From the UHGV virus genome UHGV-1973422: 8,586 bases of DNA, one strand, 5' to 3'. Origin of the DNA: a virus. The notes under the pieces are model-generated. The model was not told where the DNA came from. It did not search any database and worked only from the letters and a program-made list of their open reading frames with translations. Every line of letters starts with the position of its first letter. Positions within the stretch are counted from its first letter, which is position 1. The position numbers and the translations under genes were made by a program. Shown piece by piece: positions 5,777 to 8,586 of the stretch.

Positions 5777-6151
5777 TTACTCCTGACAGGTAACAGTCTG
5801 TAAATAACGGCCTTTTCTAATAACAACACGACAGGCATCTTTAATATCAACGGAATAACCATCTTTAATCAAATCAAAATACTGATATTTCATACCTTTT
5901 GCATCAACAAACGTAACGGAAACGTCAAAGCCAAGTTGTGAAAAAGAATTAATAGAAAGTCGGGGTAAGTCACTGGACGAATCAGGCGTTACCGCCCTCG
6001 CCTGTTCAGCATAAGCAGATTTAATAGCTGAGATTTCATCAACATTCTTTCCAGACTGGAGCCAGAAACCAAACGCAAGCCCCAGCGCCAAAAAAGAAAG
6101 CATTAATATAAGACGGTTCAATTTGCGAAAATAAATTTTAGTGAGGCGCAT
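5777..6151 (-). CDS. gXI: pXI-like protein from an in-frame internal start in gI (MRLTKIYFRKLNRLILMLSFLALGLAFGFWL...)
   Basis: Internal ATG at 6151-6149 is codon 241 of pI, the same codon position at which Ff pXI starts (MKLTKIYLKKFSRV... in M13). It is followed by a TM segment. Confidence 0.7.
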   Translation of the reverse strand: MRLTKIYFRKLNRLILMLSFLALGLAFGFWLQSGKNVDEISAIKSAYAEQARAVTPDSSSDLPRLSINSFSQLGFDVSVTFVDAKGMKYQYFDLIKDGYSVDIKDACRVVIRKGRYLQTVTCQE

Positions 6152-6871
6152 ATAATAATTAAATCCTCTGTGAACAGAAAATTGACCGTGCGTGATAAAT
6201 GGTGGCAAAAGCGAAAATGCGCCATGAGGATAATTATCTGTGAACGCTTGTTTGGTATTGTAAGCAGAATAAAGAGATTTTCCTGTATATATCCATTTAT
6301 CAACAGTGATTGAATTAACATTATCACCATATTTGACAATGCCAAAGTGTACCTTTGGTAAAGAAAATCTCGCCCCTGAAACCAAATTCATAATGGAGCC
6401 AACAAAAGGAATGTTTAATTTATCTGAACGGCGACAATAAACAACATGCTCAGCAAGCGCCAGACGAGCTTGCTTATCCATTATCGAAATATCCTGAATC
6501 AAAAATATAATATCCCAGCCTAATTTTCTGGCATGTAAAAACCAGTCAATAACAGGTTGTCTGTCTTTATCACCCCATGAGCGGGAATTAAACCAAGTAC
6601 CACATTCATCAAGTACAAGGAGGCCATTACGGGATTCATCGTAAGATGTATTCCCAATACCAATAGCAAGTAAATCATTTAATGAAGGCTTGTCAGGAAT
6701 GCGAATAACGCGCGTTTTTTTCGCATAACGCCCAACCATAGGCATATTATGCAATTTAAGATCAAGATTAGTGGCAACAGGACAACCCTTAGCAAGTCTT
6801 TCCTGTATTCTGGAAACACTAACAAGTGTCTTGCCTGAGCCTAATTTGCCTGTTACTACATAAACCGCCAT
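5777..6871 (-). CDS. gI: Assembly ATPase pI (Zot-like), 364 aa
   Basis: MAVYVVTGKLGSGKTLVSVSRIQ...LDECGTWFNSRSW.DK.RQPVIDWFLHARKLGWDIIFL.QD.SI.DKQAR.ALAEHVVYCRR is near-collinear with M13 pI (MAVYFVTGKLGSGKTLVSVGKIQ...). Walker A motif GKLGSGKT. The ATG directly follows the gVI stop (TAAATG). Confidence 0.95.
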   Translation of the reverse strand: MAVYVVTGKLGSGKTLVSVSRIQERLAKGCPVATNLDLKLHNMPMVGRYAKKTRVIRIPDKPSLNDLLAIGIGNTSYDESRNGLLVLDECGTWFNSRSWGDKDRQPVIDWFLHARKLGWDIIFLIQDISIMDKQARLALAEHVVYCRRSDKLNIPFVGSIMNLVSGARFSLPKVHFGIVKYGDNVNSITVDKWIYTGKSLYSAYNTKQAFTDNYPHGAFSLLPPFITHGQFSVHRGFNYYMRLTKIYFRKLNRLILMLSFLALGLAFGFWLQSGKNVDEISAIKSAYAEQARAVTPDSSSDLPRLSINSFSQLGFDVSVTFVDAKGMKYQYFDLIKDGYSVDIKDACRVVIRKGRYLQTVTCQE

Positions 6872-7213
6872 TTAAATCACCCTGTTTGCATAATCAAGAA
6901 ACTTTTGTTTTAAATCGAAAACAAAAACACTGATACGAGTAACCATAATAACGTTAACACACGCCTGAAAATGGTCAGGCAATACAGACGCCATTAAATG
7001 GGAGAAATCAGCAGGTAAACCGTTATACATGACCTCAGCAAGGTACTGCATTAAAAGCGTAACAGTTGTTGTAATTAATGCGACCAATGCAAAGGCGATT
7101 AATCCTGTTCTGGTAGCAAGTCGAGCTAAAAAACTCGCCACATAGCCAATAAACAAAGGAACAAGACCAATAAGAAAACGCAACAATGCAGGAATACCTA
7201 ATAATAAAGGCAT
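6872..7213 (-). CDS. gVI: Minor coat protein pVI, about 113 aa
   Basis: [14 protein letters not shown]...VFVFDLKQKFLDY matches M13 pVI MPVLLGIPLLLRFL...IFIFDVKQKIVSY. ATG 7213-7211 overlaps the gIII stop as TGATG. The track ORF starts one codon earlier at a GTG. Confidence 0.85.
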   Translation of the reverse strand: MPLLLGIPALLRFLIGLVPLFIGYVASFLARLATRTGLIAFALVALITTTVTLLMQYLAEVMYNGLPADFSHLMASVLPDHFQACVNVIMVTRISVFVFDLKQKFLDYANRVI

Positions 7214-8475
7214 CACTCACCCCCTTTGCGAAGCAATGAAGTTAAAGAAGTAAAGACATACCAGAACGTAAGGCAATAAAAAACCCATGAAAGAACATCT
7301 TTAATAGTCAGTAATTTATCGCAACCAATATCAATCTGATAAACCTCTCCGGGAAAAATAATAAAATCAGAGCAGCCGTTACCATTGGGTAAATTAGGCA
7401 GCATAGCACCTTTATTTAAAAACGCTTCCCATAAAGCACCGTGAGAATCCTTTTCAATTCCCAATTCAGAATCAGCCAAAGTAGAAGCGCCATCTAATTC
7501 AGAGTCGCCCTTTCCATAACGAGAATCACCACCTGAAGGGTCAGCAAAACGGCCAGCCCCCCGCGTAAGATTGTTAATGGAATCGTCAAGACGATTTATA
7601 TTATTCCTGGTTTGTTCATCGGCATTTTTTTTATCATCTGATGAAGTGTCTTTCTCCGTTAATTTATCATGAATATCGCTGGCTATTTTGGGTGAAGCAC
7701 CTTCGATCGCAGACTGAATATCACCTTTAGAAAGACTGGAACCACTAGAGCCACCGCCAGAACTACCGCCAGAACTACCGCCACCGGACTCACCACCGCC
7801 AGACTCACCACCGCCAGACTCACCACCGCCAGACTCACCACCGCCAGACTCACCACCACCATTTTGGGGGGTTGAGGGTTTATCAGAGGGGTCAGCTACA
7901 GCACCTGTAGGCTTCCATGTTGCAGCGCAAACAGTACCATCACCCTGACAAACAATGACACCAGTAGCCTCATATTCACAGCCGTTATAGTAGATATAGC
8001 GACCACCATCATATGAATCAACATTATTAAATACACCTTCTTCTGGCGGCTTCGCTTCACAAATTTCTTCTGGTGTCGGGTCAGTAGGTTTTTCATCAGG
8101 AACAGAACGCTGAATATTACCAACAATATAAGCCGTTAAAGACCAATATTTATCCTTCTGCCCTGGTGAATCGCTGTAAGTACAATCACCAGTAAAAACA
8201 AGACGGAATTCAGAATCAGGCCAGATACCCTCATAAGTTGGTTTAACCCGAGTAAATACACTCTGAGCACTGGATTTAGCACCCTGACAAGCAGAGGCCT
8301 GCATAGCAGCATCAATATAGTAAACCGTTGTCTTAGAGCCATCCTGATTGGTTATTTGCTTACTTTCAGCGTAGGCAGAACTTTGATAAGTGGATTTAGT
8401 AATGCTTTCCCATGACTCAGCATGTGAAAAAGGAGAAATGAGGACAGCGGAAAGAATTAATATTTTCCTTTTCAT
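7213..8475 (-). CDS. gIII: Adsorption / minor coat protein pIII, about 420 aa: signal peptide, N-terminal domain of unknown specificity, TolA-binding-like motif, Gly-rich linker, conserved C-terminal anchor
   Basis: Start at internal ATG 8475 ([19 protein letters not shown]|ESWES signal peptide). [24 protein letters not shown] resembles M13 N1 CLWNATGVVVCTGDETQCYGTWVP. (GGGES)n linker. C-terminus [36 protein letters not shown] matches M13 CDKINLFRGVFAFLLYVATFMYVFSTFANILRNKES. Confidence 0.9.
7750..7860 (-). repeat. Tandem 15-bp repeats (AGACTCACCACCGCC on the plus strand) encoding the (GGGES)n / (GGSS)n linker of pIII
   Basis: Four consecutive 15-mers at 7801-7860 (last copy ...CCACC) preceded by diverged copies at about 7759-7800. 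In frame within gIII. Confidence 0.9.
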
Positions 8476-8486
8476 AGTAACCCGCT

Positions 8487-8512
8487 TTAATAAAGGGGCA
8501 ACGAGTGCCCCT
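8487..8512 (-). terminator. Rho-independent terminator candidate between gVIII and gIII
   Basis: Minus-strand read AGGGGCA-CTCGT-TGCCCCT followed by TTATTAAAG: 7-bp GC-rich stem with a 5-nt loop. Ff phages have a strong terminator at exactly this position. Confidence 0.6.
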
Positions 8513-8521
8513 GAGTGAAAT

Positions 8522-8586
8522 TCAAACCGCTTTTGAAGAGAATTTTTTGAAAATACGAATGGCAAGCCCAGCGCCAACCACAGCCA
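8522..8586 (-). CDS. gVIII: Major coat protein pVIII, 3' portion (...[20 protein letters not shown]), continuing from 1..187
   Basis: Minus-strand translation ends in a basic C-terminus matching Ff pVIII ...IGIKLFKKFTSKAS; stop TGA at 8524-8522. The reading frame is continuous with the minus-strand ORF that leaves the window at position 1. Confidence 0.85.

Follow-up and report, generated by a model that had tools for sequence, protein, structure and literature searches.

The gene III locus of UHGV virus genome UHGV-1973422 raises the question of what the N-terminal part of a filamentous phage attachment protein is when it does not resemble that of the best-known phages, and of how a glycine linker encoded by short tandem repeats changes over time. 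We analysed the whole 8,586-nucleotide stretch (hereafter the window), which holds a single, complete circular unit of an IKe/I2-2-like inovirus, encoded on the minus strand and cut inside gVIII. This follows from the core genes, all of which lie on the minus strand and each of which fits its expected Pfam family:

8522..8586 plus 1..187, minus strand: gVIII, split over the window ends (ORF and Pfam)
391..708, minus strand: gV (ORF and Pfam)
720..1814, minus strand: gII (ORF and Pfam)
4495..5862, minus strand: gIV, secretin (ORF and Pfam)
5777..6871, minus strand: gI (ORF and Pfam)
6872..7213, minus strand: gVI, DUF5455 family (Pfam PF17537; RefSeq annotates an equal arrangement in L001)
7213..8475, minus strand: gIII, ATG at 8475, stop TGA at 7215..7213, 420 amino acids (ORF list and translation)

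The core genes also include a small ORF for G7P, which carries an annotation in the matching prophage, and the ATG of gVI overlaps the stop codon of gIII (TGATG). A tandem prophage of E. coli HUM3355, adjoining hipBA, is 99.7% identical to the window, and 47 of 5,426 complete E. coli genomes cover at least 80% of it. A closed 7.9-kb Salmonella "plasmid" record, which represents a replicative form, covers 83% of the window at 99.2% identity. Among deposited phage genomes there was no close match to the window, only short stretches in common with IKe, the PEar phages and If1, the last amounting to a single 48-bp intergenic stretch. The 420-residue protein itself occurs, as an exact sequence, on 65 public contigs, where it is labelled "attachment protein" with both of the Pfam domains described below; RefSeq gives the same label to gene III in E. 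coli prophages.

Shapiro and Putonti (2020, PMC7307601) described the UPφ viruses as relatives of IKe and I2-2 that integrate in tandem at dif, have additional ORFs where IKe, I2-2 and M13 have an intergenic region, and occur in hosts that include E. coli, Salmonella, Citrobacter koseri, Klebsiella and Yersinia. The phage in the window matches this group, to which we assign it through the hallmarks of that published description: IKe/I2-2-like core genes combined with tandem integration at the host dif site, a g3p with a variable count of GGGES repeats, and related proteins and prophages in the same five kinds of host. Unannotated ORFs lie at the positions expected for the UPφ group-specific genes h1 and h2, a correspondence of position only, and six accessory ORFs had no family above threshold in Pfam and PADLOC scans. 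A search of the window for the E. coli dif sequence returned no exact or near-exact site at up to three mismatches; the attachment region consists of a hairpin flanked by two inverted dif-like sites that have diverged (3633-3727).

The earlier note on this DNA had called the ORF at 7213-8475 a pIII gene, and we agree. An in-frame TTG upstream, at 8577, was considered as its start and rejected: because this codon lies inside gVIII, upstream of the intergenic hairpin, and the homologues all begin with MKRK or MRRK, we take the ATG at 8475 to be the real start. Read from there, gene III and the sequence just ahead of it divide as follows:

8494..8512, minus strand: GC-rich hairpin, AGGGGCA-CTCGT-TGCCCCT followed by TTATT (read from the sequence)
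8419..8475, minus strand: signal peptide, residues 1-19, which aligns with the annotated IKe signal peptide MKRKIIAISLFLYIPLSNA
8092..8418, minus strand: N-terminal pilus-binding domain (IKe N-PBD family), residues 20-128 (Pfam, phmmer, AF2, Foldseek)
7891..8088, minus strand: TolA-binding domain (Ff N1/IKe TolA-BD family), residues 130-195 (PDB, Pfam, Foldseek)
7735..7860, minus strand: Gly/Ser/Glu linker, the sole Gly-rich linker, residues 206-247 (TRF, codon listing, pLDDT)
7216..7734, minus strand: C-terminal domain, residues 248-420 (fd G3P match, IKe/I2-2 identity)
7231..7296, minus strand: hydrophobic anchor within the C-terminal domain, residues 394-415

The hairpin occupies part of the 46-nt spacer between gVIII and gIII. 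A scan for consensus terminators did not flag it. Its position corresponds to that of the central terminator of Ff phages, and for this reason it is likely to act as a transcription attenuator or terminator ahead of gIII. Cleavage of the signal peptide would be expected after residue 19, since the solved IKe domain 4eo0 begins at the residue aligned to E20.

Both N-terminal domains belong to known families. For the first, the Pfam model PF21443, "G3P pilus binding domain", covers residues 22-125 (E 8.9e-25, 87.3 bits against a gathering score of 27), and in a phmmer search residues 20-128 match the crystal chain of the IKe pilus-binding domain, PDB 4eo0 (E 1.2e-25). An AF2 model built on 40 homologues has pLDDT values of 88-96 over residues 20-125 and about 75-89 over residues 130-200, and Foldseek comparison of this model with the PDB ranked 4eo0 first (target-normalised TM 0.96, rmsd 1.0 Å, 45% identity). 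Within this domain C63 is invariant among 40 relatives and C98 is also present, and the two probably form a disulfide. Residues 130-195 match Pfam PF05357 and, by phmmer, the IKe TolA-binding domain 4eo1 (E 3.7e-25) as well as the fd/M13 N1 chains 1fgp (E 1.2e-10) and 1tol (E 6e-14). In the Foldseek ranking 4eo1 came second (TM 0.86, rmsd 1.2 Å, 73% identity), followed by the N1 domains of If1 (2x9a, TM 0.86) and fd, and four cysteines of the domain (139, 166, 176 and 183) are invariant among the 40 relatives. The two domains are joined by a short Pro-rich hinge that aligns with PDEEPSEQTPEE of IKe, with no Gly linker between them. The linker that follows the TolA-binding domain has pLDDT below 50 (residues 206-249) and is therefore predicted to be disordered. 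Beyond it, residues 341-420 are 62-65% identical to IKe and I2-2, residues 196-417 match fd G3P in the virion-tip structure 8b3o (E 1.1e-8), as would be expected from the conserved C-terminal anchor that had been proposed, and C368 and C385 are invariant. The same domain plan was found in all 40 aligned relatives.

All the sequence and structure tests thus place the gene III protein with the IKe-type G3Ps, and it fails those for an Ff-type one. Like the G3P of IKe and I2-2 (Lineavirus; 4EO0, 4EO1), it runs from signal peptide through pilus domain, hinge, TolA domain and linker to anchor, with overall identities of 51-55% (51% to IKe over the full length), both N-terminal domains alike in sequence and predicted fold, and a conserved cysteine pattern. 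It differs from IKe in its pilus-binding domain, which is only 45-47% identical, and in its linker, which is built of homogenised GGGES units where that of IKe is a longer and more degenerate mix of GGDT, GGST and GGSS; the phage, unlike IKe and I2-2, integrates at dif and carries extra cargo genes. The G3P of Ff phages (M13/fd/f1), with the layout N1-G1-N2-G2-CT, has a homologous TolA-binding domain (1fgp, 44-48% identity in structural alignments), a homologous C-terminal domain (8b3o) and linkers that are likewise Gly-rich and repeat-encoded, but its domain order is reversed and it has two linkers where the window protein has one. Ff chains match the window protein only through N1 and the C-terminal domain. 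No Ff N2 domain, the module that binds the F pilus, was detectable by Foldseek, the best fd N2 match being 9g8e at E 0.49. If1 G3P (2X9A/2X9B) has the TolA-binding fold in common (TM 0.75-0.86, 29% identity) and no similarity outside that domain. With the UPφ901 and UPφ g3p, compared by published description, the likeness extends to hosts, tandem dif prophage, IKe/I2-2 kinship and GGGES copy-number variation. In the UPφ paper (PMC7307601) the pair of N-terminal domains is not set out explicitly; the database proteins carry both as precomputed Pfam annotations.

Several proposals of the earlier note can be judged from this layout. Its IKe-like order, with a receptor domain first and a TolA domain second, is what the matches to 4eo0 and 4eo1 give, and the single Gly linker it described is the only one in the protein. 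Its view that the primary receptor is something other than the F pilus is supported by the lack of a detectable N2 domain. It rightly saw a TolA-binding element ahead of the linker, but the domain occupies residues 130-195 and not 210-235, numbers that make sense only if residues are counted from the rejected TTG at 8577. The claim that did not survive is that some 190 N-terminal residues have no recognisable similarity to known domains: they comprise the 109-residue IKe pilus-binding domain plus most of the TolA domain. The note had set that claim against an alignment with a known Ff, IKe or If1 receptor-binding domain, and the N-terminal match to PF21443 and 4eo0 is such an alignment. The structure comparison that it had proposed likewise places the region as a member of the family and not as a novel fold.

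The linker is encoded by near-perfect 15-bp tandem repeats, as had been noted. Tandem Repeats Finder (TRF) reports a period of 15 with 6.5 copies and 89% matches at 7765-7861 (score 150). The allele in the window has five GGGES units at 7786..7860, of which three share the 15-mer GGCGGTGGTGAGTCT exactly and two are each one synonymous base away; these are followed in reading direction by degenerate 15- and 12-bp units encoding GGGSS and GGSS (7735..7785, 17 residues). The nucleotide identity of the GGGES units is far above what the peptide needs, and the units have therefore been duplicated recently. Other clades have a homogenised linker unit of their own, for example GGGDT. Eighteen full-length proteins from two 90% clusters around the query range from 401 to 450 residues, are 98-100% identical to the window protein outside gaps and differ only in the linker. 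In 12 IMG/VR and genome contigs of the GGGES type the linkers are 24-58 residues long and always start at residue 205 or 206. In the 47 complete E. coli genomes, gene length ranges from 1203 to 1386 nt, with about 21 distinct values, which differ from 1263 by multiples of three with one exception, a frameshift-ridden assembly, and the extremes (23 linker residues in KE48, 79 in HB37) have at most five substitutions elsewhere.

The clearest comparisons are those in which the flanking DNA is the same. Across 1,134 non-linker bases that are 100% identical, L004, L010 and L024 have linkers of 45, 36 and 28 residues; with equally identical non-linker DNA, L005 and L011 have 57 and 28, and L006, L007 and L009 have 44, 44 and 49. 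The Salmonella replicative-form copy is identical to the window in the protein sequence of its N- and C-terminal parts and has a linker six residues shorter. Different linkers on identical flanking DNA mean that the linker changes much faster than point substitutions accumulate, which is what slipped-strand mispairing or unequal recombination would be expected to produce in a short tandem array. Gains and losses come in units of 15 bp (GGGES), 12 bp (GGSS, GGES) and 30 bp. The idea that the repeat is a substrate for slippage and for variation in linker length is therefore borne out: repeat number differs among isolates, and the invariance that would have spoken against it was not seen. Copy-number variation of GGGES has been reported as the main source of gene III diversity in UPφ (PMC7307601).

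We asked which readings of the N-terminal region and the linker other than an IKe-type receptor-binding region and a near-neutral linker polymorphism might account for these results. A new receptor-binding domain, unrelated to those of Ff, IKe and If1 and filling the N-terminal 190 residues or so, might be suggested by the lack of similarity to Ff N2, and the domain is indeed the most divergent folded part of the protein (46% identity to IKe, against 71% in the TolA domain and 62% over the final 80 residues). With a family match as strong as that to PF21443, a superposition on 4eo0 within 1.0 Å and the remainder of the region taken up by the TolA-binding domain, this explanation is refuted as stated and we consider it extremely improbable. 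A subtler alternative is that the fold is IKe-like but its specificity has changed, so that it binds another conjugative pilus (e.g., IncI1) or a chromosomally encoded surface filament, and that variants of the domain define host-range classes. Several patterns point in this direction, beginning with the mere 45-46% identity to the IKe domain. Within the UPφ clade the domain diverges fastest, with P0003 being 80% identical to the window protein there and 97% identical in the TolA domain, while in P0023 the corresponding values are 31% and 88%; relatives of the latter type look like domain swaps in sequence comparison. By the same comparisons the pilus-binding domain is the fastest-evolving folded part of the protein, which is the usual behaviour of a receptor-binding module. 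The phage is also widespread across several genera. All UPφ901 lysogens of the UPφ authors carried IncI plasmids, yet the attempts at infection failed: released virions were detected, and new infections were not obtained in a limited strain set (PMC7307601). On the other side, receptor class is often conserved between homologous receptor-binding domains that are about 45% identical. No later paper naming the UPφ receptor was found in the literature collection searched. The divergence leaves room for a changed pilus specificity, and we regard such a change as possible, if on the unlikely side.

For the linker, it is possible to imagine that length variation is adaptive, a contingency locus that tunes infectivity, host range or virion release. 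Compared with the rest of the genome, the linker varies to an extreme degree, 95 protein variants have been counted in 229 UPφ genomes, mostly in the glycine-rich repeats (PMC7307601), and the variants seen are all in frame, each allele retaining one GGGES unit or more and a minimum of about 23 linker residues. But repeat units of 12, 15 and 30 bp make in-frame variation automatic, and frameshifted alleles would be lost. Moreover, the two tandem prophage copies in HUM3355 carry one common linker allele, and Bruno and Bradbury (1997), as cited in PMC7307601, reportedly saw no selective advantage in a longer IKe linker. We therefore think an adaptive role improbable, and the length polymorphism is most probably near-neutral. 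That the polymorphism is instead an assembly artefact of a low-complexity repeat might be suspected from the many database entries for this protein that end at contig ends and from EC5502, a long-read assembly with many frameshifts, whose 15-copy prophage array was for this reason left out of the allele comparison; some linker-length calls in public assemblies could indeed be errors. The repeat array is only about 70-240 bp, shorter than typical reads, and the alleles are clean in-frame gains and losses of units. Complete hybrid genomes, IMG/VR contigs and the closed 7.9-kb replicative-form record all show the variation. The UPφ authors' own isolates differ by one repeat unit (PMC7307601). As an explanation of the polymorphism as a whole, artefact is very improbable.

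We are thus highly confident that the attachment protein encoded by gene III of this filamentous phage, which is UPφ-type, Lineavirus-like and dif-integrating, is of the IKe type and works broadly as follows. After removal of the signal peptide, residues 20-128 would bind the primary receptor, which by homology would be a retractile conjugative pilus of the kind used by IKe, whose hosts carry pili of the N, P or I2 type, and not the F pilus. Residues 130-195 would bind the C-terminal domain of TolA as co-receptor, as their 73% identity to the IKe domain suggests. The disordered linker, residues 206-247, would tether both N-terminal domains to the C-terminal domain (residues 248-420), by which the protein would be anchored in the virion tip and in the inner membrane. 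Within the linker, near-identical in-frame units of 15 and 12 bp would expand and contract through slipped-strand mispairing or unequal recombination.

Much of this has precedent. A 2020 paper (PMC7307601) had already reported the phage group, its kinship with IKe and I2-2 and the copy-number variation of GGGES, and solved structures and Pfam models exist for both N-terminal domains. The discovery value is accordingly small: the feature was known already, and the earlier note located it correctly but misread part of it. The practical value lies in precise domain boundaries and linker coordinates and in a clean demonstration of a linker outpacing point mutation. A more far-reaching proposal is that the pilus-binding domain now recognises a receptor foreign to IKe, such as another conjugative pilus or a chromosomal filament, and that its allelic variants together with linker length set host range. 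We offer this only tentatively and think it rather unlikely. If it were true, the host range so set would be that of a prophage often found in urinary and extraintestinal E. coli, and the isolated 109-residue domain could serve to identify its receptor. About 1% of complete E. coli genomes carry UPφ phages, and the identity of the receptor would reveal whether the spread of these phages is gated by conjugative plasmids.

In a domain-wise comparison of relatives of the attachment protein G3P, the pilus-binding domain seems, from the aligned sequences, to have been exchanged independently of the remaining protein. The relatives behind this apparent exchange are P0023, P0035, P0039, P0055, and P0058. 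In P0023, identity to the window protein is 31% in the pilus-binding domain versus 88% in the TolA domain; in P0055, which has an IKe-like linker, the corresponding values are 17% and 71%. Many database entries for this G3P are "partial" fragments of about 190 to 215 or 280 to 306 aa that stop at contig ends; the linker repeat or a tandem prophage is a common break point of short-read assemblies. A contig assigned to a "Candidatus Nanosynbacter" metagenome-assembled genome (L024, JARKOR010000214.1) carries this gene at 96% identity, and the presence of an enterobacterial phage gene in that bin is almost certainly a binning error.

By sequence comparison, the replication module is mosaic. The replication protein gII (720-1814) shares 56% identity with the I2-2 protein, while no match to it was detectable in IKe; gIII and gIV, unlike gII, resemble both IKe and I2-2. 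The UPφ paper (Shapiro and Putonti 2020, PMC7307601) puts gII and gV at >85% identity to their Ypfφ counterparts.

Two features at or near the window ends bear on the extent of the genome and on the gVIII-gIII boundary:

8522-8586 plus 1-187, gVIII, coding for the major coat protein as a precursor of 83 aa, divided between the window ends
8494-8512, GC-rich hairpin followed by TTATT, within the 46-nt gVIII-gIII spacer

Since gene VIII is divided in this way, the window begins and ends within gVIII and represents either a complete circular genome or a single unit from a tandem array. The hairpin at 8494-8512 was not picked up by a consensus terminator scan; in position it corresponds to the Ff central terminator.

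The interval between gII and gIV (1815-4494) is a variable cargo slot. In the window it holds six small ORFs, all unannotated. A Salmonella replicative-form record (L030, 4732-6603) carries a Doc (death-on-curing) family toxin in place of this cargo, and feature annotations of other E. coli prophages place there either a PD-(D/E)XK nuclease or a member of the STM4504/CBY_0614 family. Several cargo variants are also reported in the long tandem prophage array of E. coli EC5502 (L002, NZ_CP092647.1), for which 15 copies of gene III are reported; because that assembly is full of frameshifts, its gene III copy number and alleles are unreliable.

Within the cargo slot, an inverted pair of dif-like sites encloses a GC-rich hairpin (3633-3727), preceded by two ORFs:

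2747-3214, plus strand, ORF of 155 aa without a Pfam family
3260-3631, plus strand, ORF of 123 aa without a Pfam family
3633-3660, dif-like site 1, inverted relative to site 2
3700-3727, dif-like site 2, inverted relative to site 1

As single-stranded DNA, 3633-3727 folds at -33.2 kcal/mol (z of -8), a value equaled by none of 200 shuffles, and the folded region resembles the folded single-stranded attP of CTXφ. In E. coli HUM3355, the junction between prophage and chromosome falls at about 3727, adjoining hipA. A search of the window for the 28-bp canonical dif of E. coli, allowing up to 3 mismatches, found no match.

A Pfam scan assigned neither ORF to a family, and PADLOC returned only a weak match. 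Many large enterobacterial plasmids carry the ORF pair (region 2731-3704) at about 81.5% nucleotide identity, and the plasmid copies adjoin the same dif-like site as in the window. Furthermore, an unannotated site ~94% identical to the 72 bp at 3633-3704 occurs in >300 plasmids, conjugative for the most part, from hosts that include E. coli and Klebsiella. Plasmids and the phage may thereby have in common a plasmid site for Xer multimer resolution.
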